Assembly: GCA_034420775.1 (NCBI GenBank)
Contig: DAOUKZ010000058.1
Location: 16,108-48,107 of the forward strand
Length of the DNA: 32,000 nt
Direction of reading: 5' to 3'
Origin: Dehalococcoidia bacterium
GTDB lineage: Bacteria; Chloroflexota; Dehalococcoidia; SHYB01
The notes beneath the pieces are model-generated. The model saw only the letters and a program-made list of their open reading frames with translations, searched no databases and had not been told where the DNA came from. A program made the translations under genes and the position numbers. Shown piece by piece: positions 1 to 14,323 of the stretch (positions are counted from its first letter, which is position 1; every line of letters starts with the position of its first letter).

Positions 1-344
1 TTCCGGCCATACGCGAGCTGTACTGCGCCGAGACGACCGAGCAGGCGCTCATGGAGGCCGCGCCCTACGTGGGCGCCAAGTACGCCGCCTACGCCGATTG
101 GGGCCAGGACAAGACGATCAGCCCGACGGAGGACTTCCGCCGGGAGCTTGCCAAGCTCATGGAAGGCCGGTTCATCATCGGCAGCCCCGACGATTGCGCC
201 GCCGACCTCGCGCGGTGGGAGGCCTTGGGGCTTGGGCCCATCGTCCTGCGCATGCACTGGTCGGGCACGCCCTTCGAGCTCTCCCTCAAGAGCCTGCGGC
301 TCTTCGGCGAGCACGTCATCCCACGCTTCCGCGGCGCCGGTTGA
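1..344 (+). CDS. LLM-class (luciferase-like) flavin/F420-dependent oxidoreductase, C-terminal fragment (5' end outside window)
   Basis: The reading frame is open from base 3 (PAIRELYCAETTEQALMEAAPYVGAKYAAYADWGQDK...) and stops at 342-344. The C-terminal region is clearly paralogous to the end of the next gene (YxxYADWGQDK ... FIxGSxDD ...IPxFR). Confidence 0.7.
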   Translation, partial: PAIRELYCAETTEQALMEAAPYVGAKYAAYADWGQDKTISPTEDFRRELAKLMEGRFIIGSPDDCAADLARWEALGLGPIVLRMHWSGTPFELSLKSLRLFGEHVIPRFRGAG

Positions 345-387
345 CCCACACCAACCCTGTACACTAGGGCCGATACGGAGGATATCT

Positions 388-1407
388 ATGCGCTTCGGCA
401 TCATGGTCATGCCTCAACACCCCGCCACCGACTCGCCGGTCAAGCGGTTCCGGGAGACGGTCGAGTTGACGCGCATCGCGCGCGACGCGGGCTTGGACGG
501 CATCTGCGCCGGCCACCACTACCTCTCGCCTCCCTATCAGAACCTCCAGCACCTGCCCCTGCTGGCCCGCCTGGCCGCCGACTCGGGGGACATGGACGTC
601 ATCCTGTCCATCGTGCTCCTGGCGATCCTGAACCCCGTCGAGGTCGCCGAGAACGTGGCCACGCTGGACGTCATCACCGAGGGCCGCGCCGTCTTCGGCA
701 TCGGCCTCGGCTACCGCGACGTCGAGTACCAGGCCTTCGGGGTCCAGGTGAAGGACCGCGTCCCCCGCATGTACGAGGGGCTCGACCTCATTCGCCGCCT
801 ATGGACTGAGGACCAAGTCACCTTCCGCGGGCGGTTCTTCAACCTTACCGACGCGACCTGCACGATTCGGCCCATTCAGAAGCCGCATCCGCCCATCTGG
901 GTGGCCACCAACAGCGACGGGGCCACCGAACGGATCGGCGCGCAGGGCTTCCCCTGGTTCGTCAATCCCCACGCCGCGCTGCCGACGCTGGAAAGCCAGG
1001 CCAAGCTCTACGAAGACGCCGCCGCCAAGGCGGGCACGCCGCTCCCCAACGCGCGACCCATCCTCAAGGAGATGCACGTAGCCGAGACCCGGGAACAGGC
1101 GATTCGCATCGCGCAGCCCTATCTCGCCGGGAAATACCAGCGCTACGCCGACTGGGGACAGGACAAGGTGCTCCCCGGCGACGAGAGCTTCCGCATTCCC
1201 TTCGAGGAGCTCTCCGCCGATGGGCGCTTCATCGTCGGCAGCGTCGACGACGTCATCCACCAGATCGAGCTGCACCGCGACCGGCTCGGCGTCGACTACT
1301 TCCTCTTCCGCATCTGGTGGCCCAGCATGGAGGCCTACCACGCCTACCGCGTCGTCGAGATCCTCGCCGAGCGCATCATCCCGCACTTCAGGAAGTCGGC
1401 GGCCTAG
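388..1407 (+). CDS. LLM-class (luciferase-like) flavin/F420-dependent oxidoreductase
   Basis: The ATG at 388 (MRFGIMVMPQH...) is in frame with ORF 148..1407 and is preceded by GGAG at 377-380. Elements typical of luciferase-like monooxygenase family proteins are present (GLDGICAGHHY, FGIGLGYRDVEY, PPIWVATNS). The 148-387 extension is Ala/Ser/Pro-rich and overlaps the upstream gene. Confidence 0.8.
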   Translation: MRFGIMVMPQHPATDSPVKRFRETVELTRIARDAGLDGICAGHHYLSPPYQNLQHLPLLARLAADSGDMDVILSIVLLAILNPVEVAENVATLDVITEGRAVFGIGLGYRDVEYQAFGVQVKDRVPRMYEGLDLIRRLWTEDQVTFRGRFFNLTDATCTIRPIQKPHPPIWVATNSDGATERIGAQGFPWFVNPHAALPTLESQAKLYEDAAAKAGTPLPNARPILKEMHVAETREQAIRIAQPYLAGKYQRYADWGQDKVLPGDESFRIPFEELSADGRFIVGSVDDVIHQIELHRDRLGVDYFLFRIWWPSMEAYHAYRVVEILAERIIPHFRKSAA

Positions 1408-1424
1408 CAGCTCCCCACCGGCGA

Positions 1425-2834
1425 TTACTCCTCCTTGTCATCGTCCTCGTCGTCTTCGGCTTCCGGCATGAGGACGAATTCGGGGTAGGCTTCGAGGCCG
1501 AGTTCGGCGGCATCCTGGCCGAGGCGCTCGACCTGCGGCGGCACCCGGAGCGTAATCGTCATGTCCAGTACGCGCCACAGTACCCACGAGACCGCGAAGA
1601 CGAACGCGCCGATCGTCACGATGCCGAGCAGTTGGACGCCGAAGTCTCCGCCGGCGGCGATGCAGACGGCCAGCGTTCCCCAGATGCCGGCGAACAGGTG
1701 GGCTGGTACGGCGCCGACCACGTCATCCAGCCGCAGCTTCTCGAAGAGCTTGAGGCCCAGGGTGCAGATGAGGCCTCCAATGGCGCCGATGACGACCGCC
1801 CAATAGTGGTCGACAAAAGTGGGACCCGCCGTAATCGACACAAGTCCCGCGATCGCCCCGTTCAGGCCGGCGAAAAGGTCTATGCGTCCGAGAATGTAGC
1901 GGGACACGGCGAGGGCGGCCATGACGCCGGCCGCCGCCGCCAGGTTGGTGTTGGCCAACACGTGGCTCATCGACACCGCGTCGGCCGCGCTTCCCAGCGC
2001 CAGCTGCGAACCCCCATTGAAGCCGAACCAACCGAACCAGAGGATGAAGACACCCAGCGTCACCACCAAGATGTTCGAGGGCGGCGTGGGCCTTGGGGTG
2101 CCGTCGCGGCGGAATTTGCCCAGCCTTGGCCCGATGACCAGGATGCCCGCGAGCGCCGCCCAACCGCCGACGCCGTGGACGATGGTCGACCCGGCGATGT
2201 CCTGGAACCCTTCCTGGTGAAGCCAGCCGCCGCCCCACGTCCAAGCCCCCACGATGGGGTAGATGATCGCGGTGAGCAGCAGCACGAACAGGAAGAACGT
2301 CCACATCTTCACCCGTTCGGCGAGCGCGCCCGAGACGATGGAGGCTGCCGTCGCCACGAATACCATCTGGAAGAACCAGTCCGACATCGTGGCGTAGCTG
2401 CTTCCTTCCAGAACGGCGGCCTCTGCGTTGCCGTCTCCCCCCACCAGCGCGATCTCCTCAGCGGTCGGTCCGTAGAGGAACGTGAACGAGCCGATCACGT
2501 TGCCCACGTCGACGTACATCAGGTTGTAGCCGATGAAGAAATAGGCGAGCCCGGCGATCGAGTACAGCCCGATGTTCTTCAGGCAGATCATCGACGCGTT
2601 CTTGGTGCGGACCGAACCCGACTCGAGCATGGTGAAGCCGGCGCACATCCACATCACCAATGCTCCCCAGATGAGGAACGAGAAGGTGTTGAAGACGAAC
2701 GCGGTCTCCTCTCCGACGCCCGTCGCATGGGCCACGGACGGGCGGGCCAGGAAGAGAATGATCGTCGCGACGCCGGTCGCGGCAAGGATGCTGGGAAGAC
2801 GGTGATGGGAAAGGACTCGTGTGAGCGTGTTCAA
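1425..2834 (-). CDS. amt: Ammonium transporter (Amt family)
   Basis: 469-aa polytopic membrane protein with Amt-type blocks (FNTFSFLIWGALVMWMCAGFTMLESGSVRTKN, IAGSTIVHGVGGWAALAG, WFGWFGFNGGS, VVGAVPAHLFAGIWGTL). It starts at TTG 2834, 6 nt after a GGAGG that overlaps the upstream stop codon. The C-terminal tail is acidic. Confidence 0.9.
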   Translation of the reverse strand: MNTLTRVLSHHRLPSILAATGVATIILFLARPSVAHATGVGEETAFVFNTFSFLIWGALVMWMCAGFTMLESGSVRTKNASMICLKNIGLYSIAGLAYFFIGYNLMYVDVGNVIGSFTFLYGPTAEEIALVGGDGNAEAAVLEGSSYATMSDWFFQMVFVATAASIVSGALAERVKMWTFFLFVLLLTAIIYPIVGAWTWGGGWLHQEGFQDIAGSTIVHGVGGWAALAGILVIGPRLGKFRRDGTPRPTPPSNILVVTLGVFILWFGWFGFNGGSQLALGSAADAVSMSHVLANTNLAAAAGVMAALAVSRYILGRIDLFAGLNGAIAGLVSITAGPTFVDHYWAVVIGAIGGLICTLGLKLFEKLRLDDVVGAVPAHLFAGIWGTLAVCIAAGGDFGVQLLGIVTIGAFVFAVSWVLWRVLDMTITLRVPPQVERLGQDAAELGLEAYPEFVLMPEAEDDEDDDKEE

Positions 2835-2847
2835 GCCGTACCTCCTC

Positions 2848-3312
2848 TTACGTTTGCGCCCATCGCGCCAGTGCCTTTTCGGGCGACGCGATCTCTTCGA
2901 TTCGGGTGTAGTAGAAGTCCTGCCAGCCCTCTTCGGGCAGGCCGGTGAACAGCATCAGGTTGAGGGGGTAGGCCTCGCTGTCGGTAGCGCGGCGGAAATC
3001 GTCCCGGAAGAGGAAGGTCGGCTTGCCCAGCGCGATGGCCATGCCAAGCTCGACCATCACCCCCTCGTCCGGCGGCACGCCGTTGACCACCGCGAAGATC
3101 CCGTCGGACTCGACTACGTCGCGGAAGTCGCCCTGCCCGACACGGTAGGCCCACCCCGGCTCTGAGAGGTTCTCCGGGGCGTTGTTTCGAGAGAACGGCT
3201 CCCAGACCTCCAACTCCAACGCCTCCAGCGCCGCAGTCAGTGGCGGCAGCAGCGCCGCCCGCTGCTGTGCGGAGAAACCGTACGGATTCGCCAGGTAGAC
3301 CGTCTTCCCCAT
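2848..3312 (-). CDS. Nucleoside 2-deoxyribosyltransferase-like protein
   Basis: 154-aa protein with MGKTVYLANPYGF at the N-terminus and GIFAVVNG...DEGVMVELGMAIALGKP, a pattern typical of the nucleoside deoxyribosyltransferase (PF05014-like) fold. Its stop lies 13 nt upstream of the amt start, so the two are probably co-transcribed. Confidence 0.6.
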   Translation of the reverse strand: MGKTVYLANPYGFSAQQRAALLPPLTAALEALELEVWEPFSRNNAPENLSEPGWAYRVGQGDFRDVVESDGIFAVVNGVPPDEGVMVELGMAIALGKPTFLFRDDFRRATDSEAYPLNLMLFTGLPEEGWQDFYYTRIEEIASPEKALARWAQT

Positions 3313-3382
3313 CTCTGCGCGCCGCCCGCCTCACGCGAGATCGCCGACCCGCGTGGTGTGGCGGGTTAGATTGCCCGGCCGG

Positions 3383-3787
3383 CTAGGCTTCCCTGTACAT
3401 GTAGAAGGCGCTCGACCCCAGCACGAGCGGCAGTCCAACGTCGATGACGACCCAGAACTGACCGTCCCCGCCGTTGCCCCACTTCAGGTCCACCCAGTTC
3501 CACAGGAGGAGCAAGAGCAACGCCGCCGCTGCGTAGAAGGTGACATTTCCCGCAATGAACTCCTTGACGTCCGTCCGGGTGTGCATGAGGCGCAACCGCG
3601 CGATCCCCCCGATGACGGCAAACGCGACGGCGGCGATCATGCAGTAATTGAGGATGTCCCAGATTGTCCGCGCGGTCTCCTCCACGTTGGGGTCGTAGAT
3701 TGGCGTCGCGACGAAGTGGCCCGCCACCGCCACCGCCACGAGCATCATGAATATCGCCGCCACCCGTGTCAGCCCCGATACGACCAT
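3383..3787 (-). CDS. Small integral membrane protein, unknown function
   Basis: 134 aa with about four hydrophobic helices. A GGGAGGG Shine-Dalgarno lies 4-5 nt upstream of ATG 3787. No recognisable family motif. Confidence 0.5.
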   Translation of the reverse strand: MVVSGLTRVAAIFMMLVAVAVAGHFVATPIYDPNVEETARTIWDILNYCMIAAVAFAVIGGIARLRLMHTRTDVKEFIAGNVTFYAAAALLLLLLWNWVDLKWGNGGDGQFWVVIDVGLPLVLGSSAFYMYREA

Positions 3788-3942
3788 AACGCCCTCCCGT
3801 CGGTAAGAGTCCGCGGACCTGCGGCACAGTGTAGGCGAACCTCAAACCGCGTTCAATAACGCTACCCGCGTCTCCTGCGGCCCCACGCCGCTGCCCTCCC
3901 GTAGAATTAAGGCGCCGCGGCCCGCGGCCGAGGAGGAGCACC

Positions 3943-4335
3943 ATGCCCGACGGCGCGTTCACCCTGTTCAAGACCTTCGTCCACCTCGAGGATGGCCCGG
4001 GGGCGTCCGAGGTCGCCGTCGGCGACCGGTTCTGGGAGGAGATCGGCAGCCGCGCCGACCTTCAGGAAGGACGCCTCGTCACCGCCGCTCATTGGGAGGA
4101 GGATTGGTCCGTCTGGGAGCGCCACCCCGCCGGCGACGAGATCGTCTTCGTCCTCTGGGGCCGTGCCGACCTCGTCCTGCAAGAAGACGGCGGCGAACGC
4201 ATTGTCCCCCTTCCCTCTGGCCATGCCTGCATCGTGCCTCGGGGCGTCTGGCACACCGCCCGCGTTCCCGAGCCCACCAACGCCCTCGCGATCACGCGCG
4301 GCGCCGGCACCGAGCACCGCCCCATAGCGGGGTAG
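3943..4335 (+). CDS. Cupin-domain protein
   Basis: 130 aa with the two cupin motifs (WERHPAGDEIVFVLWG and PSGHACIVPRGVWHTA). A strong GAGGAGGAG ribosome-binding site lies upstream. Confidence 0.7.
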   Translation: MPDGAFTLFKTFVHLEDGPGASEVAVGDRFWEEIGSRADLQEGRLVTAAHWEEDWSVWERHPAGDEIVFVLWGRADLVLQEDGGERIVPLPSGHACIVPRGVWHTARVPEPTNALAITRGAGTEHRPIAG

Positions 4336-4394
4336 TATCGCAACCGCCGCCGAAGTCGTAGAATAGCCTCAATATCGTAGATAGGAGTGGTGCA

Positions 4395-5027
4395 ATGTCT
4401 GAACTACGCGATGCTCAGATCGACCTCGAACAGTCCCTGCTCAAGCCCATCACCGACGCCTTTCCCCAGGCCAGGGGCATCAACATCGAGGTCGAAATCT
4501 GGCAGGACAACCGGCGGAAGCGCGGCGACGCTGCCCTCGAAAGCTGGCAACCCGGCAGGGACGGCGAGATCAGGATCCGCTTCGCCGCCCCGGCCCGCTC
4601 CGGTTCGTGGTCACGCGACTACGACGCGGCCGGCGCCGAAAGCGCCGAGCCCCCGCTCGACCCAGAAGACCTGCGCCGCGACCTCCTTGAGTCGCTGGAG
4701 ATCGCGGAGCGCCGGCCCGGCTTCGACTTCGTCGCCCTCAAATGGTTCCGCGACCTCTTCCTGCCCGCCGAATGTCCAGAATGGGCGGAGTCTCGCGCGC
4801 TCCGCGACCGGGCCGTCCGCAGCGCCATCGAGGACGGGGTGATCCTCACCAACAAGGTGCCGAACCCTAAGAACCCTGCCTTCCCCGTGACCGCGATCCG
4901 CGTGAACCGGGCCCACCCGGAGGTCATCGGCCTGCTGGGCGAGGACGATTCCGACGGCCCGCGCTTCCGCCCCGTCTCCATGCGGGGCGAGCCGCTCTCC
5001 AAGACGGTGCTCGACGAAAGACGCTAG
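4395..5027 (+). CDS. Hypothetical protein; putative atypical (long) antitoxin partner of the downstream PIN toxin
   Basis: 210-aa ORF with AGGAG 7 nt upstream. It stops 3 nt before the PIN-gene start. The C-terminal tail (RPVSMRGEPLSKTVLDERR) resembles my recollection of toxin-binding tails on PIN-associated antitoxins. The central part (FVALKWFRD...AIEDGVILTNKVPNPKNPAFPVTAIRVN) looks wHTH-like. These are inferences only. Confidence 0.45.
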   Translation: MSELRDAQIDLEQSLLKPITDAFPQARGINIEVEIWQDNRRKRGDAALESWQPGRDGEIRIRFAAPARSGSWSRDYDAAGAESAEPPLDPEDLRRDLLESLEIAERRPGFDFVALKWFRDLFLPAECPEWAESRALRDRAVRSAIEDGVILTNKVPNPKNPAFPVTAIRVNRAHPEVIGLLGEDDSDGPRFRPVSMRGEPLSKTVLDERR

Positions 5028-5030
5028 GCG

Positions 5031-5477
5031 GTGGCGCTCTACTACCTCGACACGAGCGCGCTGGTCAAGCTCTACGTTGCCGAACCCGGCACCGAGCGCA
5101 TGTTGGACCTCGCCGACAGCGAGGATGCTAACCAGTTCGCGGTGCTCTCCATCGCCCAGGCCGAGCTCTGGTCGGCGTTGGGCCGACGCCAGCGGGACGG
5201 CGCCATCGACGATGAGGAGGCCTCCGACCTCCTCGACCGCTTCAGCGAGGACCTGGAGTCGTTCTTCCTTCGCCAGAACGTCAACGACGCCGTGATCGAC
5301 CTCGCCTGCGCCCTTCTGGAGCGCCACCCGCTGCGGGCCGACGACGCGCTGCAGCTCGCAGGCTGCCTCACCCTCAGGCCGGCGGCTCCCGACACGCCGG
5401 TGTTCACCAGCGCCGACGACGACCTGCTCGACATCGCCGAGGAGGAAGGGCTGCGCACCTTCAACCCCGTCGAGTAG
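5031..5477 (+). CDS. vapC: PIN-domain ribonuclease toxin (VapC-like)
   Basis: It starts at GTG with the typical PIN N-terminus (ALYYLDTSALVKL). Additional conserved acidic positions are present (AQAELW, RADDALQLA, SADDDLL). Size is 148 aa and the gene is tightly coupled to the upstream ORF. Confidence 0.75.
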   Translation: MALYYLDTSALVKLYVAEPGTERMLDLADSEDANQFAVLSIAQAELWSALGRRQRDGAIDDEEASDLLDRFSEDLESFFLRQNVNDAVIDLACALLERHPLRADDALQLAGCLTLRPAAPDTPVFTSADDDLLDIAEEEGLRTFNPVE

Positions 5478-5510
5478 CGCAGCGGTCCAGTTGGCGACGC
5501 TGTCCCGCCG

Positions 5511-5539
5511 TTGACAGGGAAGAAGCCGTCTCCTAGACT
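5511..5539 (+). promoter_or_regulatory. Putative sigma70-type promoter of the DUF35-thiolase gene pair (TTGACA-N17-TAGACT)
   Basis: Perfect -35 TTGACA at 5511-5516, a 17-nt spacer, then TAGACT at 5534-5539. It lies about 25 nt upstream of ATG 5564, which has no obvious Shine-Dalgarno, so the leader would be short. Confidence 0.4.
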
Positions 5540-5563
5540 CGCGGCGCCCCCAGCGCGCTTCCT

Positions 5564-5977
5564 ATGACCTCTTCGCCACGCACCCGGCCGCTACCCGTTC
5601 CCACCGACTTCTCGCGCCCATTCTGGGAGGGGACGCGGGCCGGACGGCTGCTGGTCCCTAGGTGCTCCGACTGTGGCTTCTACCGCTGGACGCCGCAGCC
5701 CGCCTGCCCCCGCTGCCTCTCCGAGGCCTTCGAGTGGACCGAGGTCAGCGGGCGGGGTGAGATCTACAGCTTCTCCGTGATCTACCGTTCCGCCGACCCC
5801 GTCGTCTTTCCCGACCCCTATGTGGTCGCCGTCGTCCGGCTGGAGGAAGGCCCGGCCATGCTCAGCACCATCGTGGGCTGCCCGTTCGAGGAGCTACGGG
5901 TCGGGATGGCCGTCGAGGTGTCCTTCGAGAAGGTGACTGACGAAATCACCCTCTACCCCTTCAGGCCGGCCTCCTGA
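5564..5977 (+). CDS. Zn-ribbon/OB-fold protein (DUF35 family), thiolase partner
   Basis: 137 aa with the FWEG motif, a four-Cys rubredoxin-like ribbon (CSDCGFYRWTPQPACPRC) and then an OB-fold region. Its stop overlaps the thiolase start (ATGA at 5975-5979). Confidence 0.8.
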   Translation: MTSSPRTRPLPVPTDFSRPFWEGTRAGRLLVPRCSDCGFYRWTPQPACPRCLSEAFEWTEVSGRGEIYSFSVIYRSADPVVFPDPYVVAVVRLEEGPAMLSTIVGCPFEELRVGMAVEVSFEKVTDEITLYPFRPAS

Positions 5978-7209
5978 TGCCGGCGCCCCGCGACGCGGCC
6001 ATCGTCGGCCTCTACACGACGAAGCAGACGCGCGGCGAGGGCCGCAGCGGCTTTTCGCACGCCATGGAGGCGCTCCGCGGCGCCCTGGACGACGCGGGTC
6101 TGACCATCCAGGACGTCCAGGGCCTGTTCGTCCAGCTCGATGCCTGGCCGCAGAATCCGGCGGCGCCCGTCTACGGCATGAAGGCGAACTGGCCGTACCT
6201 GTTGGGCATTCCGCTTCGCTGGCAGACCGGCGCGGTCAACGCCGCCGACAGCGGCGCGCCGGCCATCATCGACGCCGCCGCGGCGATCAAGACCGGCAAC
6301 GTCGACACGGTCGCCATCATCCTGGGGCGGGGCATGACCCAGCCCCCAGACGGCCGCACCGCCCCGTGGACGCGCCACGTCCAGGAGTTCACCGGCTGGA
6401 CGGGCTCCTACACCGCGATCCAGTTCGCGCTCGTCGCCTCGCGGCACATGGCGGTCTACGGCACGACGCCCGAGCAGCTTGCCGCGGCCTCGGCCACGGT
6501 GCGCAACTACGGCAACGTGAACCCGCAGGCGTTGATGTACGGCCGGGGCCCCTACGATGTCGACCGTGTCGTCAACGCCCGCATGATCGCGACGCCGCTC
6601 ACCGTGCTGATGTGCGCCCAGGTCAACGACGGGGGCGGCGCCATGATCATCACCACCGCCGAGCGGGCGCGCGACCTCAAGAAGCCGCCGGTGCACATCC
6701 TCGGGGGCGGCGACCAGCTTTCCTATCCCGCCTACACCGAGGCGCCGCTGCTTGAGCACCACCTCGGCGGCCCCTTCGCCACGGACTGGGTCGACAAGGG
6801 CTTCGCCCGCGCCGGGGTGACCCGCGACGACGTCGACTTCGTCGAGCTGTACGACGGCTTCGCCATCTGGATGCTGACCCAGTGGGAGATGCTCGGCTTC
6901 TGCAAGCCCGGCGAGGGCGGGCCGTTCGTCGAGAGTGGCGTCATGGAGCTCGACGGGCGCTATCCCACCTGCACGGACGGCGGCTGCATGTCGTTCAGTC
7001 ACAACGGCACGCCGTCGCTCTTCCGGCCCATCGAGGCCGCCCGCCAGCTCCGGGGCGAGGTCATGGACGACTGCCCCGGCTGGGAGCGGGGCGAGCATTC
7101 CTACCTGAAGGGCGCCTGCCGGGCCGTCAAGGACGCCAAGATCGGCATGGCGGTGACGATGGGCCCGCCCACCGGCGGCGGCAACTTCGTCCTCCTCGCC
7201 AAGGACTAG
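5977..7209 (+). CDS. Thiolase-superfamily protein, SCP-x / lipid-transfer-protein type
   Basis: 410 aa. The C-terminal region (ELYDGFAIWMLTQWEMLGFCKPGEGGPFV...TDGGCMSFSHNG) is typical of the non-classical thiolases that pair with DUF35 proteins. Confidence 0.8.
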   Translation: MPAPRDAAIVGLYTTKQTRGEGRSGFSHAMEALRGALDDAGLTIQDVQGLFVQLDAWPQNPAAPVYGMKANWPYLLGIPLRWQTGAVNAADSGAPAIIDAAAAIKTGNVDTVAIILGRGMTQPPDGRTAPWTRHVQEFTGWTGSYTAIQFALVASRHMAVYGTTPEQLAAASATVRNYGNVNPQALMYGRGPYDVDRVVNARMIATPLTVLMCAQVNDGGGAMIITTAERARDLKKPPVHILGGGDQLSYPAYTEAPLLEHHLGGPFATDWVDKGFARAGVTRDDVDFVELYDGFAIWMLTQWEMLGFCKPGEGGPFVESGVMELDGRYPTCTDGGCMSFSHNGTPSLFRPIEAARQLRGEVMDDCPGWERGEHSYLKGACRAVKDAKIGMAVTMGPPTGGGNFVLLAKD

Positions 7210-7304
7210 GCGCTCGCCGCTTTTCCCCCAGGGCTTGCCCCTTCTCCGCCGCCGAAGCTACCATGCGCCGCAGTCCCGGGATGGGATGACGGGAGGCGAG
7301 AGCT

Positions 7305-8108
7305 ATGGCTTCGTGGACGGGGAAAGTTGCGTTCGTGACGGGTGCGGGGATGGGGATCGGGCGCGCGACGGCGGTCCGGTTCGCACGGATCGGGGCGAAC
7401 GTGGTGGCGGTCGACGTGGACGACGAGGCCGGGCGCGAGACGATCGGCGAGATCGGCCATGGGGACAGCAAGGCGATCTTCGTCCAGGCCGACGTGTCGT
7501 CGGAGAGCGACGTGGCCGGGGCGGTCGAGAAGGCCGTCTCCACCTTCGGGCGCATCGACCTGCTCCATAACAATGCAGCCATCATGCGCCGGCACGACTC
7601 GCTCGAAGCGTGGCCCATCGAGGAGTTCCGCCGCGTGATCGACGTCAACCTGAACGCGCCCTTCCTGGTGGCCAAGGTGGTCGCGCCGGTGATGCGCGAC
7701 GGCGGGGGCGGCGTCATCATCAACATGTCGTCGCAGGGCGGGCTGGTCTCGGTGCCGTACTCGCCGAGCTACGCCGCGGCGAAGGCGGGCGTGATCTCGC
7801 TCACGCGCACCCTCCCCGACATGCTCCGGGGGACGAACATCCGAGTGAACGCGATCTGCCCCGGCTTCACCGACACGCCCATGACCCGGAACCCGCGGGC
7901 GCGGGCCAACCTGGGGTCCGTGGCGATGGCCCCGATGGACGCCGACGACCTCGCCCGCGCGGTGCAGTACCTCGCCGAGCGCGAGGACCTCGACCGCTTC
8001 ATGATGGTCGTGGCCCGCGACGCTGAAGGCAGGGTCGAGTACCTGCAGGTCCAAGACCCGCCCGCGCAGACCGCCATCGGCTTGGCCGACGACATCGGCC
8101 CCCAATGA
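7305..8108 (+). CDS. Short-chain dehydrogenase/reductase (SDR) 1
   Basis: TGAGMGIGRA glycine-rich NAD(P) motif, NNAA, and the YSPSYAAAK catalytic Yxxx(x)K region. GGGAGG Shine-Dalgarno upstream. Confidence 0.85.
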   Translation: MASWTGKVAFVTGAGMGIGRATAVRFARIGANVVAVDVDDEAGRETIGEIGHGDSKAIFVQADVSSESDVAGAVEKAVSTFGRIDLLHNNAAIMRRHDSLEAWPIEEFRRVIDVNLNAPFLVAKVVAPVMRDGGGGVIINMSSQGGLVSVPYSPSYAAAKAGVISLTRTLPDMLRGTNIRVNAICPGFTDTPMTRNPRARANLGSVAMAPMDADDLARAVQYLAEREDLDRFMMVVARDAEGRVEYLQVQDPPAQTAIGLADDIGPQ

Positions 8109-8893
8109 ACCGCGCCGACGGCAAGGTTGCCATCGTGACCGGGGCCGCCGGCGGCATCGGCCGCGCCTCGGCGCTGCTCTTCGCCGAACGCGGCGCGAAG
8201 GTCGTTGTCGTTGACCTGAAGGAAGAGGAGGGCGCGGAGACCGCTCACATGATCGCCATGAGCGGCGGCGAGGCCATCTTCGCCGCGGCCGACGTCTCCG
8301 ACGTACCCCAGGTGCAGGAGCTGGTGGGCACGGCGCTGACCGCCTACGGGCGGGTCGACTACCTCCACAACAACGCCGCGATCATCGCCCACCACCGCGA
8401 CGTCGACGAGATCGGCGTCGACGAGTGGCGGCGCATCATCGACGTCAACCTGTCTTCGCTTTTCATCTGCTCCAAGGCCGTCATCCCGATGATGCGGACG
8501 CAGGGCGGCGGCGCCATCGTCAACACCTCGTCGGGCGCGGGGGTGGCGGCCTACGGCATCGCCCTCGCCTACTCCGCCGCCAAATTCGGCGTTCTGGGCC
8601 TGACCCAGGGTCTGCAGCAGCTCGTCGAGGGCGACAACATCCGCGTGAACGCGGTGCTGCCGGGCATGACGCGGACGCCGATGCTCGAGGTCTCCGACAC
8701 GGGCCGCGCCGCCCTCCAGAAGCCGGAGATGCTCCTCGACCCCATGGACCTCGCCCGCGCGGTCTTCTACCTCGCGGTCAACGAGGAGATGCGCGCGGCC
8801 CTAGTCTACACGAGCCTGGGCGACGACGGCCCGGTCTACGATCTCGTGCTCCCCAACCAGTACGAACGCCTGAGCGGCGTGGAGGCATTCTGA
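8105..8893 (+). CDS. Short-chain dehydrogenase/reductase (SDR) 2
   Basis: TGAAGGIGRA, NNAA and YSAAK motifs. The start overlaps the SDR1 stop (ATGA). Confidence 0.85.
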   Translation: MNRADGKVAIVTGAAGGIGRASALLFAERGAKVVVVDLKEEEGAETAHMIAMSGGEAIFAAADVSDVPQVQELVGTALTAYGRVDYLHNNAAIIAHHRDVDEIGVDEWRRIIDVNLSSLFICSKAVIPMMRTQGGGAIVNTSSGAGVAAYGIALAYSAAKFGVLGLTQGLQQLVEGDNIRVNAVLPGMTRTPMLEVSDTGRAALQKPEMLLDPMDLARAVFYLAVNEEMRAALVYTSLGDDGPVYDLVLPNQYERLSGVEAF

Positions 8894-9684
8894 TGGGTCA
8901 ACTCGACGGAAAAGCTGCCATCGTCACCGGCGCGGGGTCGGGCATGGGACGCGCCACCGCGGCGCTGCTCGCCTCGGAGGGCGCCAAGGTCGTGGTGGCC
9001 GACGTCGACGAGGCCGGGGCCGCCGAGACGGTCTCCCAGATCGCCGCGGCGGGCGGCGAGGCCGTGGCGGTGGTCGGCGACCACTCGGTGAACAAGGACG
9101 TGCAGGAGGTCGTGGGCACGGCGCTGTCGAACTACGGCGGCGTCGACGCGCTCCACAACAACGCGGGCATCCTGCGCAGCTACGGGAGCATCGAGGAGCA
9201 CCCCGAGGACGTGTGGCGGCGCGTGGTCGACGTGAATCTGACCGGGTACTTCCTGATGTCGCGGGCGGTCCTGCCCCTGATGCGGGCCGGCGGCGGCGCG
9301 ATCGTCAACACGGCCTCGATGGCCGCCATCCATCCCTACGCGCCCGGCCCGGCCTATTCGGCCTCCAAGGCGGGCGTGCTGGGCCTGACCACCGCGTTCG
9401 CCGAGGCCGGGGCCGCCGACGGCGTCCGCGTCAACGCCATCTGCCCCGGCGGCGTCGACACCGCCATCCTGAGGTGGGCCTCGGTGCCCGTCCCCGACGA
9501 CCGCTCCGGCCTCGGCCTCATGGATCCCGGCGACATCGCCCGCCTCGTCCTCTACTTCGTCACCCACCCCGACATCACCGGCCAAGCCATCGCCGCCCGC
9601 AAGATCGACGGCGAGACCCGCTATCACTACGTGGATGTGCTGGTGAGCGAGCGGGAGCTGGTGATCGGTAAGGGGGGCCCCTAG
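8893..9684 (+). CDS. Short-chain dehydrogenase/reductase (SDR) 3
   Basis: The internal ATG at 8893 of ORF 8425..9684 gives MGQLDGKAAIVTGAGSGMGRA. NNAG and YSASK motifs are present. ATGA overlap with the SDR2 stop. The 8425-8892 extension overlaps SDR2 in another frame and is Arg/Pro/Gly-rich. Confidence 0.85.
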   Translation: MGQLDGKAAIVTGAGSGMGRATAALLASEGAKVVVADVDEAGAAETVSQIAAAGGEAVAVVGDHSVNKDVQEVVGTALSNYGGVDALHNNAGILRSYGSIEEHPEDVWRRVVDVNLTGYFLMSRAVLPLMRAGGGAIVNTASMAAIHPYAPGPAYSASKAGVLGLTTAFAEAGAADGVRVNAICPGGVDTAILRWASVPVPDDRSGLGLMDPGDIARLVLYFVTHPDITGQAIAARKIDGETRYHYVDVLVSERELVIGKGGP

Positions 9685-9725
9685 CCCCTTTTCGGGAATA
9701 CCACCATCAACCTAGGAGCGATTCA

Positions 9726-11951
9726 GTGGCACGAGCGTTCGTGACGTATTCACAGAAGGACTCAGAATTCGTGGATAAGTTGGTTACCGACCTTGAGAGT
9801 GCGGGCCAAGCCTTGGTGCTGGATAAACGGGTGATGCTCCCAGGCGATTCGTTGATGAAGATCTTTGAAGAGATCGGCACAGTCGAATTCTTGTTGGCCG
9901 TCTTGTCTCCGGACGCAGTGAAGAGTAACTGGGTGAAGAAGGAACTTGCAGGTGCAGTCATTCGGGAGATCGAAGAGCCGGGCTTCAAAGTCATCCCCAT
10001 TATCAAGGAGGGCTGCCAGCTACCCACAGCATTAAGGCAAGCCATACGCGACAAATACCAGGCCCGCTTTGATGAAAAGGACCACGATGTGGTAACGAGA
10101 GAGATCCTGGAGGCTCTCTCGGCGGCCAATGATCCTCGAATGCTATATTCCGAATCTCAAGGGCCACGTAGTGGCAATCCATTCCGACGTGTCCGCGCTG
10201 AGTATTTTGAGAGCATAAGGACTCTTGCACGATCATATTCGGAACCGGAAGCCGCTCGCTACGAAAGAATAGTGGAAACCAAACCTGTCATTCTTGAAGG
10301 AGGCAGAGGGTCGGGCAAGACGATGACCTTGAAGTCGATGCTCTTGCAAGCCTTGCTTTCTCGCTTCCGCCGACAAACCTTGGATGAGACAAACATCTCC
10401 TACTTTGGCGTATACCTTCGCTTCGTTCCCGGTTCATTCGCCACCCAGTCACAAGCAGTGGAGGAGATCGTTGGGATGGACCGTTGTATCGCTCTATTTA
10501 TGAGCGAAACGATTCTCAAATTAACACATGCGTTGGTAGAAGAACTAAAATCCTGTGCGGACGCAGGCGTTGTCCAAACCAGTAGTAGTCGGGAGCGCCA
10601 ACTCGTTTCGGAGATTACCAACATTGTAAGACCATCAGTTCAGGGCGATCCACAGACAACTGACCTGGAAACTCTGAGCAGGATGTTATCCATAGAAATC
10701 CGGTTTATAACAGACTACGTGAACCGCCAATTGTTCGGAGAAAGCAGCGAATACAAAGGGGTATTCCTCCGTGTTGAAGACCTGAAGCGAATTTGTCATG
10801 CTACGACTAGCATATACCTGGCGAGACCCGAAGCGACAGTCTACTTCCTTTTGGACGAATTCGAAAGCCTGTTGGTTTTTCAGAAAGTAGTGACTAACAG
10901 CATCCTTAAAGCTAGCGAGTCCGGACACTACTCGGTGAAAATCGCGACCAAGAAGGCCGCTTTGGCGACATCTAGTACACTTGAAGCTCAAGAGATCGAA
11001 GAACCTCACGATTACACCTCAGTTGATGTCGACTACAACATTTCCGACTCTCAGGAGCGCCAGAATTACAAAGATCTACTAATCACGATCTGTGAGAACA
11101 GCCTGTCCAACGAAGCCTTCAGCGAAACGAGGATCGACCAGCTTTTGGAACCCCGGCTTGACTGGGACGGACTGAATAGAGAAGAGGTTGACGATGAGAT
11201 AACCAGTGTTTTAGGAGACCGTCCTGTAACGGCCGAGGATCGACACAGACTAGGACATGCTGCCGTCTTTAGGCTGCTTCACCGACAGAGAGGCAAGAGG
11301 AAGCAGTTTGCTGGTTTTGATGACTTGGTTACTCTTTCCTCCGGAATAATCAGGTTATTCTTGGAGCTAGCAGGCTTGTCCTATCACTTTGCAGTACAAG
11401 AGAATATTGACGTGAAGGGAGGACAGCCAATTGGACGCAGCCACCAAACTAGCGCAGCATACGCACTTTCGGATTACTATTTGACGACCATCAGAAGCAA
11501 TGTCGCGACAGTAGGACCTCAGATTCAGCAACTTGTTGTTGACTTGGGAGATATATTTCGAGCGAAGCTGCTCAAACATACCAGCGAGCCAGAAGGGTCG
11601 CGGTTAGCTATCCATGATCCGCATTTGCTAGAAGAGTCGGCCTCCAAAGAGGCTGAGATGGTGCTTACGCAAGCTGTAATCCATTCAATCTTTCAGAACC
11701 CTGAACAACGAGGCGGGATGCGACCAAAGCACCTGACCGACATTCAACCACAGGAGTATATCCTCAACCGGGTCTATAGTCCCAGCCTCGGCATTTCGCC
11801 TCGACCTCGCTGGCGCACGCGAATCAGCACCAAGGACCTGCTTGAACTCATGGATCCAACCCTTCGGCAGAAAACCAAATCTAGATTGACGAGATTGGTT
11901 AGTCGTTCGAGTGCAATGCAATCGGAGTTGCCGCTGGAGGCCGGCTCATGA
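9726..11951 (+). CDS. TIR-domain / P-loop NTPase fusion protein (candidate NADase-type defence effector-sensor)
   Basis: GTG start with AGGAG 7 nt upstream. Residues 1-135 form a TIR domain (AFVTYSQKDSEFVDKL..., LLAVLSPDAVKSNWVKKELAGA, with the conserved Glu at codon 73, nt 9942-9944). Walker A is GGRGSGKT (nt 10299-10322). The Walker B-like element is VYFLLDEFESL (about nt 10845-10865). About 360 further residues have no motif I recognise. Confidence 0.8.
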   Translation: MARAFVTYSQKDSEFVDKLVTDLESAGQALVLDKRVMLPGDSLMKIFEEIGTVEFLLAVLSPDAVKSNWVKKELAGAVIREIEEPGFKVIPIIKEGCQLPTALRQAIRDKYQARFDEKDHDVVTREILEALSAANDPRMLYSESQGPRSGNPFRRVRAEYFESIRTLARSYSEPEAARYERIVETKPVILEGGRGSGKTMTLKSMLLQALLSRFRRQTLDETNISYFGVYLRFVPGSFATQSQAVEEIVGMDRCIALFMSETILKLTHALVEELKSCADAGVVQTSSSRERQLVSEITNIVRPSVQGDPQTTDLETLSRMLSIEIRFITDYVNRQLFGESSEYKGVFLRVEDLKRICHATTSIYLARPEATVYFLLDEFESLLVFQKVVTNSILKASESGHYSVKIATKKAALATSSTLEAQEIEEPHDYTSVDVDYNISDSQERQNYKDLLITICENSLSNEAFSETRIDQLLEPRLDWDGLNREEVDDEITSVLGDRPVTAEDRHRLGHAAVFRLLHRQRGKRKQFAGFDDLVTLSSGIIRLFLELAGLSYHFAVQENIDVKGGQPIGRSHQTSAAYALSDYYLTTIRSNVATVGPQIQQLVVDLGDIFRAKLLKHTSEPEGSRLAIHDPHLLEESASKEAEMVLTQAVIHSIFQNPEQRGGMRPKHLTDIQPQEYILNRVYSPSLGISPRPRWRTRISTKDLLELMDPTLRQKTKSRLTRLVSRSSAMQSELPLEAGS

Positions 11952-12898
11952 CGGTTCGACAGCTGTCTTCACTGGGTCCCGTAGTCGAGGAGCGAGCCGA
12001 GGTGTTCATTGGGTGCGCTAGCTTTGAAGAACGCTGTCTGGGCGGTTTGAGCTTGCTCCCCCCAGCGTACCGTTTCGCCCATAGCTACCTGTGCATCTAT
12101 GACGACTTCAATGAAGCCAGGCAGCCAAATGTCAGGGCTATGACCGAAGTTCTTCAGGGGCATGGGCCATTGAGCACAGTCGAGGCCTCTGAGGAAAATC
12201 CCTCTCGTTCGATCGCCGAGTTGCTAAGTGGCATTCGTGCCCTTGCTGCGCTATCGGAGATCAGAGTCACTTTGGACGCGTCCACCTTCACGAAACGACA
12301 TCTGCTGCTATTGCTGCATGCTTTAGATGATGCTGGACTATGGCGTTCATTGAGGATTCTCTACACTGAACCTAAGGAATACGTTGTTGATATGTACCTG
12401 CCAATGTCCATGGGGATTAAAGAAGTGGCACCTATACCCGGCTTCACGAATGTAAAGCCTCCTGACAAGCCTGTACTTTTAGTGATTATGCTCGGCTATG
12501 AAGGTGATCGGTCGATGGCTCTCTTTCAAACGATTGAACCCAACGAAACAGTGCTTCTGGTGCCGAAACCTGCTTACCGCCCCGAGTGGGAGGGGCGAAC
12601 TGAGGAACTCAATGGACAGCTAGTCTCACTCTTGGGTGAAGATGCTATAGAATACGCCGACTCTCGGGATCCCCTTCAAGTCAAAACGGCCCTCGACAAA
12701 GTGTTGGGCAATCGGTACTCGACAAAGGACTGGACTTGTCTAGTATCGCCGTTGGGAACGAAACCCCAAACAGTCGGCCTCTATGCGTTTTGGCGAGAGA
12801 AGCCTGATTCTTGCGCATTGATATATGCGCAACCACTGAGACACAACGAAAGGTACTACTCCAAAGGTTCAGGCCCGACTTGGGAGTTGGGAATCTGA
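11948..12898 (+). CDS. Hypothetical protein with two tandem Rossmann-like (CARF/SAVED-like?) modules
   Basis: ATGA overlap with the upstream stop. Two internally similar halves each open with a strand-Gly-aromatic-Glu-x-acidic-Arg element (VFIGCASFEERCL and LLVIMLGYEGDRSM). About 85-90 residues later each has a strand followed by a polar-xxx-Lys element (VTLDASTFTKRHLL, which fits the CARF signature [DN]x[ST]xxx[RK], and CLVSPLGTKPQTV). The fold assignment is inference. Confidence 0.55.
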   Translation: MTVRQLSSLGPVVEERAEVFIGCASFEERCLGGLSLLPPAYRFAHSYLCIYDDFNEARQPNVRAMTEVLQGHGPLSTVEASEENPSRSIAELLSGIRALAALSEIRVTLDASTFTKRHLLLLLHALDDAGLWRSLRILYTEPKEYVVDMYLPMSMGIKEVAPIPGFTNVKPPDKPVLLVIMLGYEGDRSMALFQTIEPNETVLLVPKPAYRPEWEGRTEELNGQLVSLLGEDAIEYADSRDPLQVKTALDKVLGNRYSTKDWTCLVSPLGTKPQTVGLYAFWREKPDSCALIYAQPLRHNERYYSKGSGPTWELGI

Positions 12899-14172
12899 TG
12901 AGGAGACGTCAGACCATTGAACCACAATCGATAGACCTAAAGAATCGATCTGATGTGGCGCTTGATCGAATAGCGATGCGACTTCATCAGCTTGACAAGT
13001 ATCCAGCGAAGATGATTCCTCACATGGCCCGGTTTTTGATTGAAAGGGTATCGGAACCGGGCGACACGGTATTGGATCCCTTTTGCGGTACTGGCACGGT
13101 GGTTCGCGAAGCGCTCGCGCTTGGCCGCAATGCTATAGGACTGGATGTGAATCCATTAGCCACACTTTTTACCCATGTGAAGGTTCAGAATTACCACCGC
13201 AAGGCACTAGAGAGACAATTGGCAGAACTGCTGGAGGAATTTAGGAGGCAAAAACCAACCATTGTTTTCGGCTTCCCGAACGCGGAGTACTGGTTTACTC
13301 CAGCGACTCTACGAAAACTAGCGATCATACGGTCTGTAGTGGATCGATTGCCCCAGAAAGTGCCGAGCCCATATCCAGACTTTTGGCGGGCCGTACTGGC
13401 ATCTATTGTGCGCCAAGCGAGTAGAGCAGATAATCGAGGTCCGAAGCCCTTTATTTCGAAAAGAGCGCGCGAGAGGAAGAAGGGGATAAATTGCAATCCA
13501 TTTACATTGTTTGCACGTGCAGGTCAAGCTCGCATTGACCTGCTAGGCTCGAGCGCTGACAAATTCGGCGACAGTCGAGTTGAAGTGATGCACGGTAATG
13601 CCAAGACACTGCCCACTAGCATGAGGACAGTCGGTGTCGATGCAGTTGTGACGTCGCCTCCGTACCTAAACGCTCAGGACTATTATAGGTCGTGCAAACT
13701 AGAACTATGGGTCCTTGGACTCCTTGGAGTAGACGCGAATATGAAGTGGGCCCGTGATGAGATCATAGGGACTGACAGAATGCGCATCGACCATCGACTG
13801 TTCGACCTCCCAATGCCTTCACCCACAAGTGTCGCCGCCCGCGAGAGCCTGGTATCCGCTAATCCCAAGAGCGCATGTATTTTGACGAAATACACCTTAG
13901 ATATGGCGAAGGTACTTTCCCAAATAGAACAAGTGCTGAAGCCAGGAGGGTATTGTGCAGTAGTCTCAGGGGACAACACTCTTTCCGGCATGCCCGTGCA
14001 AACTCACAAGATCATCACGGAACTCGCACTGCACTCGGGCTTCCGATTAACGCATCACTATGTGGACGCCATACGAGATCGGTGGGTACCTCCTTCCCGT
14101 AATGGTCACAACGGAGTGATCCTTGAGGAACATATACAAATCTTCCAAACCCCCTTGTCTATCAGCAGTTAA
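12898..14172 (+). CDS. DNA methyltransferase, N4-cytosine/N6-adenine (amino-MTase) family, motif I before motif IV
   Basis: The ATG at 12898 overlaps the upstream stop (ATGA). The AdoMet-binding block is YPAKMIPHMARFLIERVSEPGDTVLDPFCGTGTVVREALALGRNAIGLDVNP (DPFCGTGT at nt 13075-13098). The catalytic motif IV is VVTSPPYLNAQDY (SPPY at nt 13654-13665). About 185 residues separate the two motifs. The 12811-12897 extension overlaps the previous gene. Confidence 0.8.
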   Translation: MRRRQTIEPQSIDLKNRSDVALDRIAMRLHQLDKYPAKMIPHMARFLIERVSEPGDTVLDPFCGTGTVVREALALGRNAIGLDVNPLATLFTHVKVQNYHRKALERQLAELLEEFRRQKPTIVFGFPNAEYWFTPATLRKLAIIRSVVDRLPQKVPSPYPDFWRAVLASIVRQASRADNRGPKPFISKRARERKKGINCNPFTLFARAGQARIDLLGSSADKFGDSRVEVMHGNAKTLPTSMRTVGVDAVVTSPPYLNAQDYYRSCKLELWVLGLLGVDANMKWARDEIIGTDRMRIDHRLFDLPMPSPTSVAARESLVSANPKSACILTKYTLDMAKVLSQIEQVLKPGGYCAVVSGDNTLSGMPVQTHKIITELALHSGFRLTHHYVDAIRDRWVPPSRNGHNGVILEEHIQIFQTPLSISS

Positions 14173-14230
14173 TGTCGTACCTGGAGAGTTGATAGAGGGC
14201 GCCTGCCATCGCGGCGCGACTTCCCTGATT

Positions 14231-14265
14231 GGCCCCCTTCCCCCACCCCAGCCCCCCGCCCTCGC
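14231..14265. repeat. C-rich tract (G-quadruplex-capable on the minus strand) at the island / dnaJ-promoter junction
   Basis: The plus strand reads GGCCCCCTTCCCCCACCCCAGCCCCCCGCCCTCGC. The complement therefore has five or more closely spaced runs of 3-6 G. Confidence 0.5.
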
Positions 14266-14294
14266 TTGTCGCTACCCTTGGCGCTCCCTATAAT
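14266..14294 (+). promoter_or_regulatory. Putative sigma70-type promoter of dnaJ (TTGTCG-N17-TATAAT)
   Basis: TTGTCG at 14266-14271, a 17-nt spacer, and a perfect TATAAT at 14289-14294. It lies 30 nt upstream of ATG 14324. Confidence 0.45.
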
Positions 14295-14323
14295 TCAGGG
14301 TTGGGAGAGTGGGCGAGCCGGGT

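Follow-up and report, generated by a model that had tools for sequence, protein, structure and literature searches.

The 32,000-nucleotide window analyzed here (positions 16,108–48,107 of the forward strand of contig DAOUKZ010000058.1, assembly GCA_034420775.1, from a Dehalococcoidia bacterium of the Chloroflexota) contains a low-GC island with a three-gene cassette at window positions 9685–14300, where the G+C content is 0.51 as opposed to 0.68 in both flanks. The island boundaries are sharp. Our subject is the middle one of its three co-directional genes, gene 2, an open reading frame (ORF) of 316 amino acids at 11948–12898 on the forward strand, which runs from ATG to TGA and whose protein product is also called on two public contigs. 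We annotate it as a tandem-CARF protein on the basis of the ORF, matches to the CARF6 models, a structure prediction, and CARF fold matches, all described below. Upstream is a gene for a TIR–ORC/Cdc6-like NTPase (gene 1) and downstream one for a DNA methyltransferase (gene 3). The stop of gene 1 and the start of gene 2 overlap as ATGA, the stop of gene 2 and the start of gene 3 overlap by 1 nt as TGATG, and the ATG of gene 2 is preceded, at a distance of 9 nt, by a GGAGG. Given these overlapping junctions and the GGAGG, the three genes look like one translationally coupled operon.

An earlier reading of the DNA alone (the original prediction) had described the gene 2 protein as two tandem Rossmann-like halves with CARF-type signature positions and had quoted four motifs, all of which are present in the 316-residue ORF: IGCASFEERC (residues 21–30), DASTFTK (110–116), MLGYEGDRS (181–189), and SPLGTKPQ (267–274). 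To count conservation we used an alignment of 68 homologues with 38–81% identity (A1). The four motifs are the most conserved columns of the family: E27, R29, D110, G183, Y184, R188, P268, G270, T271, K272, P273, and Q274 are invariant, K116 is kept in 67 of the 68 sequences, and S25 in 63. In the N half, the motif that follows strand 1 (S25-F-E27-E-R29-C-L-G32, 12020–12043, forward strand like all features of the cassette genes) also has an invariant G32, and the motif that follows strand 4 (D110-A-S-T-F-T-K116-R-H118, 12275–12301) contains the CARF signature. The equivalent motifs of the C half are G183-Y-E-G-D-R188 (12494–12511), in which E185 is kept in 66/68, and P268-L-G-T-K272-P-Q274 (12749–12769). 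A fifth motif, E213-W-E-G-R-T-E219-E-L-N222 (12584–12613), has W214, E219, and N222 invariant in A1.

Gene 2 contains the published CARF signature [DN]x[ST]xxx[RK] a single time, at DASTFTK, which fits it as claimed. Since 24% of shuffled sequences of the same composition contain the signature, its presence alone proves nothing; it is, however, kept at that alignment column in 68/68 members (D110-x-S/T112-xxx-K/R116), thus providing the basic residue expected after strand 4 of a CARF domain. SPLGTKPQ, which had been called a near fit, lacks the literal signature, but K272 is invariant within G-T-K-P-Q. The polar Ser or Thr expected at the end of strand 1 is present in the N half, where S25 follows the strand at residues 17–23, whereas the C half has G183-Y184 instead. 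The spacing of 85–90 residues claimed between the two motifs of each half was also borne out, with 87 residues from R29 to K116 and 84 from R188 to K272. The proposed common opening, G-x-x-[FY]-E-x-[ED]-R, describes only the C half accurately. The N half reads F-E-E-R, one residue shorter and with its Gly one position further from the aromatic residue, and what both openings have in common is a hydrophobic strand followed by an acidic residue and Arg.

We then asked if the two halves are related to each other. A BLASTP comparison of the two halves gave no match. Alignment of the halves with hhalign, using two independent family alignments, was collinear over 133–139 columns in the originally predicted register but not significant (P = 0.056–0.06), and in global mode it gave no meaningful alignment. 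In contrast, the repeat was clear in an AF2 (AlphaFold2) model of gene 2 calculated from the 68-sequence alignment, with a mean predicted local distance difference test score (pLDDT) of 93.6 and a predicted template modeling score (pTM) of 0.92, the latter indicating a fixed packing of the two halves. The model contains a β-α-β-α-β-α-β-α-β-β unit twice, and the ten elements recur at an offset of 151–161 residues. In the N half these are β17–23, α28–36, β45–51, α56–71, β75–80, α85–100, β105–110, α116–128, β135–145, and β154–162. Each half alternates β and α elements and then ends in two long adjacent strands, as expected of the six-stranded CARF core with its hairpin of strands 5 and 6. The duplication is therefore visible in the predicted structure only, the sequence-level repeat not being significant. 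The original prediction had named the lack of a statistically detectable repeat as grounds for dismissing it, and by sequence the repeat indeed falls short (P ≈ 0.06), but we consider that the predicted structure overrides this.

When the full model was compared with the PDB using Foldseek, whole-chain matches to assorted proteins with two Rossmann folds were poor, with a root-mean-square deviation (rmsd) above 13 Å, whereas half-length matches were confident (probability 1.00, 131–153 columns, rmsd 4–5 Å). The confident matches were all CARF domains, those of Thermus thermophilus Csm6, Cam1, Csa3, Can2, and Card1; the Crn1-type protein SSO1393 (3qyf) was matched more weakly (probability 0.94, 118 columns). 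We also modeled the C half alone, from an alignment built from slices of the protein hits (pLDDT 88.8). Its top 32 PDB matches were all CARF (probability 1.00, TM-scores (TMq) 0.51–0.66), with Card1 at 7.5e-6 and Can2 at an rmsd of 2.9 Å, and Csm6-2 (9w3w) was also among the C-half matches. The full-length and C-half models align differently to the same targets; Cam1 (8t66_B), for example, aligns over 152 columns at 19% identity with the full model and over 139 columns at 14% with the C half. From this difference we infer that the full-length matches are to the N half, so that both halves of gene 2 would be CARF-like. We place the N-terminal CARF domain at about residues 15–165 (11990–12442), using the secondary structure and the CARF6 model positions, and the C-terminal one at about residues 172–316 (12461–12895), using its separate model, the Foldseek matches, and the CARF6 model positions. 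The tandem Rossmann-like, CARF-type architecture is thus upheld by the AF2 and Foldseek results for the full model and for the C half.

Mapped onto the model, each of the four motifs directly follows strand 1 or strand 4 of its half. Loops at these places make up the ligand site of CARF domains according to their 2014 definition (PMC4012209), two CARF domains pairing into a composite pocket on the (pseudo-)two-fold axis. In the model, the most conserved residues of gene 2 thus lie on the predicted loops that hold the nucleotide in CARF dimers. Neither the full-length nor the half alignments, used as profiles against PDB sequences, returned anything real, and nothing meaningful was matched in a viral structure library.

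Pfam and NCBIfam scans of the gene 2 protein returned no matches. In PADLOC-DB, 12 CARF6 models of ~300 residues matched it, the best being PDLC01917 (6e-32; residues 17–310 against model positions 15–296 of 308). The N half maps only to CARF6 model positions ~14–155 and the C half only to ~155–300. Because the halves map separately to their own halves of the models, the two-lobed unit is standard for CARF6 and the duplication is old. Among homologues, the Pfam families CARF_Card1 and HFX_2341_N, the latter named for the Csa3a-like HFX_2341 (PMC11434293), match the N half in P0057, P0113, and P0095 and the C half in another protein, which is weak support. When the separate halves of ~50 orthologues were scanned against Pfam, only weak HFX_2341_N matches appeared, in 2/50 and 1/49. 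Gene 2 is thus shown to be a single-chain pseudo-dimer of two diverged CARF domains that belongs to the CARF6 clade. An exhaustive profile search found 3,217 clusters (50% identity) at E ≤ 1e-3 and 1,663 at E ≤ 1e-10, and nearly all of the 150 listed representatives are standalone proteins of 300–345 residues. Gene 2 likewise proved to be a standalone two-lobe protein with no effector domain attached, as originally stated. In one representative (P0164, 643 residues), a single ORF combines a C-terminal portion of the tandem CARF (profile positions 110–318) with an N6_N4 methyltransferase domain; this may be a genuine fusion or a frameshift where stop and start overlap.

The original prediction had also compared gene 2 with SAVED domains, which are fused pseudo-dimers of CARF-like units. 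This holds as an analogy of architecture, two CARF-like lobes in a single chain, but membership was rejected: no PADLOC SAVED model matched gene 2 at E ≤ 1, and SAVED structures were absent from the top 50 fold matches of both the full model and the C-half model. The only match with a SAVED name, "SAVED5--SAVED_TIR", was to gene 1 through its TIR domain. SAVED proteins are fused to an effector and partnered with a CD-NTase or SMODS cyclase, whereas gene 2 stands alone and a cyclase is not among its conserved neighbors. We also rejected membership of MADS, a system of eight genes, to which only weak mad8 and mad2 matches were found.

Gene 1 (9726–11951) encodes 741 residues from a GTG start with AGGAG upstream. 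Pfam places TIR_2 at residues 5–116 (3e-15) and the ORC-CDC6-like family PF24389 from about residue 151 (4e-71; 240.9 bits vs a cutoff of 27). The TIR domain (9738–10073) has a putative catalytic E73 within S..W...E, with E73 kept in 34/38 and W69 in 35/38 orthologues. In the NTPase module, the Walker A motif GGRGSGK (G192–K198, 10299–10319) has G192, R194, G195, G197, and K198 invariant in the 38 orthologues, as is Walker B, D377-E378 (10854–10859). Judged by these residues, both enzymatic modules look active. An N-P-F-x3-R-x-E-x-F motif at residues 151–161 (window 10176–10205), ahead of the P-loop module, is invariant in 38/38 orthologues. Among the N-terminal heads (~140 residues) of the homologous NTPases, Pfam detected TIR_2 in 34/39 loci and ThsB_TIR in 25/39. 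An impression that TIR occurs in only a subset of loci was rejected, as tblastn had missed diverged copies that the Pfam scan of the heads recovered.

Gene 3 (12898–14172) encodes an N6-adenine/N4-cytosine DNA methyltransferase of 424 residues (Pfam N6_N4_Mtase 2e-18; PADLOC MTase_II 1e-40). Its longest ORF starts from a TTG at 12811 and would overlap gene 2 by 88 nt (12811–12898), but the true start is most likely the ATG at 12898, because both the public gene call (L001) and the homologue alignments favor it. Beyond these immediate neighbors of gene 2, the genes called from −4.5 to +10 kb are housekeeping genes. Directly upstream of the island are three tandem short-chain dehydrogenase paralogues (window 7305–9684) with overlapping or abutting stops and starts, and the island begins ~40 nt past the last of them.

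Scanning a single genome of each species, we obtained 57 loci, spread over Chloroflexota, Acidobacteriota, Planctomycetota, Nitrospirota, Verrucomicrobiota, Spirochaetia, Latescibacterota, and others, and also over archaea (Methanoregula, Bathyarchaeia, Nitrososphaerota). The order NTPase, tandem CARF, methyltransferase on a single strand is found in ~47/57, and a methyltransferase occupies the matching position in ~45. This conserved order and the gene overlaps bear out the tight coupling of gene 2 to the TIR-NTPase and the methyltransferase that had been proposed. Gene 2 is an obligate partner of the ORC/Cdc6-like P-loop NTPase. The ~47 loci share these neighbors rather than the type III CRISPR-Cas linkage that is canonical for CARF proteins. 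Most of the related loci likewise have a lower GC content in the cassette than around it, and the flanks lack synteny from one genome to another. Low GC and differing flanks fit a mobile cassette that has been transferred horizontally on repeated occasions.

Several individual loci depart from this pattern. One Dehalococcoidia metagenome-assembled genome (MAG; L052, 8001–8159) has kept no more than the C-terminal 53 residues of a close homologue, at 85% identity; neither an NTPase nor a methylase was detected near this fragment, which may be the remnant of a decayed cassette. In a Latescibacterota locus (L035, 6292–8001 and 8879–10504), gaps of ~1.7 kb between NTPase and tandem CARF and ~1.6 kb between tandem CARF and methylase replace the abutting junctions seen elsewhere and may reflect insertion between the cassette genes. 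A search of a phage collection gave two matches, both to the cassette of one organism. The record concerned (L063, CAKLQF020000018.1, 'Acinetobacter phage MD-2021a') carries efp, cstA, kamA, and tRNA-Val within positions 1–12519 and, because of these genes, looks like a contig of a bacterial chromosome. Its cassette adjoins the tRNA-Val and consists of three unannotated ORFs, a tandem CARF (PADLOC 9e-126), and a methylase, so that it resembles the PRTase type described below. Finally, the 19-kb plasmid NZ_CP051679.1 of Spirosoma rhododendri (L060) encodes a CARF6 protein at 1471–2439 (PDLC01917, 2e-75) beside which neither NTPase nor methylase is annotated. This may be an orphan copy, although the stretch ends at the end of the record just upstream and the gene table of the plasmid is incomplete.

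More distant tandem CARFs, 24–29% identical, are found in sister cassettes with other effectors. In two MAGs (L054 and L055), the genes are a methyltransferase, a PRTase-CE protein (PF24390), an ORC-CDC6-like NTPase, and a tandem CARF. Plasmid pNP7-2 of Moraxella osloensis (L061) carries a dUTPase, PRTase-CE, NTPase, tandem CARF, and N6 methylase, and plasmid pDG3-1c of Agrobacterium salinitolerans (L062) a C5 methylase, HD-CE (PF24391), NTPase, and tandem CARF, with thyX next door. A further locus (L058) has a methyltransferase, an ORC-CDC6-like NTPase, and a CARF6 protein. In some of these cassettes (L055, L058) the methyltransferase is not adjacent to the tandem CARF. Across the TIR-type and sister cassettes, the methyltransferase class varies between N6_N4, Eco57I-like N6, and C5. 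The suffix "-CE" marks a nucleotide-targeting "conflict effector", a name that goes back to Nicastro et al. 2023 (per PMC12871103). What stays constant is therefore the pair of ORC-CDC6-like NTPase and tandem CARF, with a DNA methyltransferase of varying class, and the variable slot is filled by TIR, PRTase-CE, or HD-CE. As TIR is replaced while the NTPase and tandem CARF are kept, TIR is an effector that can be exchanged, which makes a TIR-derived ligand unlikely. The sister tandem CARFs match PADLOC CARF6 models at 1e-75 to 1e-131 whereas gene 2 reaches only 6e-32, so the TIR-linked branch lacks a CARF6 model of its own. D110, K272, R29, G183, and T271 are kept across the TIR, PRTase-CE, and HD-CE types. 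Beside the sister cassettes, and not in the TIR type, we observed a dUTP diphosphatase or ThyX-like gene (L061 2147–2812, L062 6971–7909, L055 8541–9554), which may point to a connection with the modification or metabolism of pyrimidine nucleotides.

The CARF6 fold family and the partner families PF24389–24391 have already been catalogued computationally. Like the proteins of the CARF6 clade (PADLOC-DB v2 models PDLC01910–01924, "CARF6--CARF_CARF_CARF"), gene 2 is ~300 residues long, two-lobed, and matched over its full length, but it differs by the invariant EWxGRTExxN, which is absent from other branches. With the cassettes that combine PF24389 and PF24390 or PF24391 it shares the NTPase family, the tandem-CARF partner, and the DNA methyltransferase; here, however, TIR is fused to the N-terminus of the NTPase rather than encoded by a separate upstream gene, the dUTPase or ThyX neighbor is absent, and the methyltransferase is of the N6_N4 type. 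Two CARF-type lobes per polypeptide are also found in Can1, Csm6-2, and the SAVED proteins Cap4 and CalpL, in which they form one asymmetric pocket (PMC13187428; bioRxiv 784280). Those proteins carry nuclease or protease effectors in the same chain and operate with Cas10 or a CD-NTase, whereas gene 2 stands alone with no cyclase nearby.

Like the cassette, Thoeris combines a bacterial TIR bearing a catalytic Glu and, on a separate protein, a nucleotide sensor of Rossmann-like type. Unlike Thoeris, the cassette has its TIR fused to an NTPase and exchangeable, a sensor with no effector, and a methyltransferase. A ThsA-type gene (SIR2, TM, or Macro) is not among the three cassette genes, and the PADLOC ThsB model matched gene 1 only at E = 0.011. 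BREX likewise combines an ATPase of the ORC/Cdc6 clade (BrxC) with a DNA methyltransferase (PglX) and has no obvious restriction nuclease (PMC12839542), but the cassette lacks PglZ, BrxA, BrxB, and BrxL, its NTPase is much smaller and of another Pfam family, and it has nucleotide-targeting effectors and a tandem-CARF subunit instead. No PglZ or Brx model was among the PADLOC matches listed for the three proteins (for gene 3, the best 25 of 73). PUA-Calcineurin-CE-HAD, described in a preprint (PMC12871103), shares with the cassette the combination of a nucleotide-targeting conflict effector, a small-molecule sensor, and DNA methylation. Its trigger is m6-dAMP from degraded Dam-methylated host DNA (PMC12871103). 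In that system the sensor is a PUA and not a CARF domain, there is no NTPase switch, and the methylation is that of host Dam instead of a cassette methyltransferase.

The cassette looks like an anti-phage system, and our tentative reading, to which we give somewhat less than an even chance, is that gene 2 is the ligand-gated regulatory subunit of the NTPase switch in this putative system. The two halves would form a single asymmetric pocket for a nucleotide-derived small molecule, as in the single-chain tandem CARF or CARF-like sensors that bind one asymmetric ligand, Csm6-2 (cA5), Cap4 SAVED, and CalpL (PMC13187428). Occupancy of the pocket would gate assembly or activation of the NTPase, which would then cluster its N-terminal TIR domains, leading to NAD+ degradation and arrest of the infected cell. 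The methyltransferase would supply a self/non-self or self-integrity reference. TIR would be the effector rather than the generator of the signal, because PRTase-CE or HD-CE fills its slot in the sister cassettes. Of the two roles originally offered for gene 2, a sensor of a TIR-derived or other signal and a regulator of a neighboring protein, the latter is the better one.

Several points weigh against a ligand-gated subunit. Our view that all four motifs point into a common pocket is inferred from CARF precedent. No experiment on the CARF6 or PF24389–24391 families is reported in the accessible literature. The cassette does not contain a signal-generating cyclase, which leaves a CARF-type ligand with no obvious source, and such an abundance of invariant charged residues might point to catalysis instead of binding. 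In addition, E27, H118, Y184, Q274, H299-N300, and the EWxGRTExxN motif are not kept in the PRTase-CE and HD-CE relatives, so that ligands or interfaces are possibly specific to each branch.

Loss of H118 and EWxGRTExxN where TIR is replaced would fit a TIR-specific ligand, and this is one reason to consider that TIR, once activated, makes an ADP-ribose-derived signal, as ThsB does in Thoeris, for which the tandem CARF would be the receptor, feeding back on the NTPase or methyltransferase. The frequency of TIR and ThsB_TIR among the heads (34/39 and 25/39, with the catalytic Glu in 34/38) is another. We nevertheless consider this quite improbable, and disfavor a TIR-derived signal for gene 2 to sense, because the cassette would then hold no downstream effector. 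The pair of NTPase and CARF6 also occurs with PRTase-CE or HD-CE, where the core pocket residues D110, K272, R29, G183, and T271 persist in cassettes that have no TIR. Fusion of TIR to an oligomerizing NTPase is, moreover, generally known as the usual arrangement of an effector. The abundance of invariant charged and polar residues in gene 2 would be explained if it were an enzyme, a ring-nuclease-like or other nucleotide-hydrolyzing standalone CARF that clears a signal or metabolite and so holds the TIR-NTPase off. Characterized standalone CARFs with no effector domain are, as is generally known, typically ring nucleases, the Crn1-like ones cleaving cA4; the ring nuclease SSO1393 is among the fold matches (3qyf, probability 0.94), and the N half has S25 after β1 and K116 after β4. 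This is doubtful in similar measure to a TIR-made signal: SSO1393 is matched less well than Card1, Can2, Cam1, and Csa3, which are sensor CARFs, a catalytic motif is not assignable from the sequence, and the cassette holds no source of cyclic oligoadenylates.

It is also unlikely, if not to the same degree, that gene 2 is a ligand-independent adaptor that bridges the NTPase and a methyltransferase reading unmethylated sites, with the loops retained from a CARF ancestor as protein interfaces. Gene 2 always lies between the NTPase and methyltransferase genes, with overlapping codons; the fusion of a tandem CARF to a methyltransferase in P0164 hints at physical contact, and the varying methyltransferase class fits generic use of a modification mark. 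But the methyltransferase is not adjacent to the tandem CARF in L055 and L058, and P0164 may be a frameshift artefact. Furthermore, conservation peaks precisely at the canonical CARF ligand loops in each half and persists across very distant branches, a pattern more characteristic of small-molecule sites than of co-evolving interfaces. Returning to a ligand-gated subunit, we regard as a long shot the more specific idea that the cassette guards its own methylation mark. The methyltransferase would tag the host chromosome, and methylated (deoxy)nucleotides or short oligonucleotides set free when a phage nuclease degrades host DNA would bind the asymmetric pocket, whereupon the NTPase would assemble TIR and NAD+ would collapse. 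The m6-dAMP-sensing PUA-Cal-HAD system is the only precedent for a methylated-nucleotide trigger (PMC12871103). If true, such mark-guarding would be the first case of a CARF-family sensor of a modified non-cyclic nucleotide, outside CRISPR and CBASS and free of a cyclase, and would explain why a nuclease-free abortive-infection cassette has its own methyltransferase.

In Pfam, NCBIfam, and GenBank records the gene 2 family goes by "hypothetical protein", which makes the annotation itself useful. Cultured carriers exist for all three cassette types: Planctomicrobium sp. SH661 (TIR), M. osloensis pNP7-2 (PRTase-CE), and A. salinitolerans pDG3-1c (HD-CE). CARF domains are known experimentally as receptors for the cyclic oligoadenylates of type III CRISPR-Cas. 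The clade to which gene 2 belongs is large (1,663 clusters), spans bacteria and archaea, and has neither an adjoining cyclase nor cas genes, being found always alongside an ORC/Cdc6-like NTPase, a DNA methyltransferase, and a nucleotide-degrading effector. The identity of its ligand would tell what CARF senses outside CRISPR and how methylase-linked, nuclease-free cassettes detect infection.

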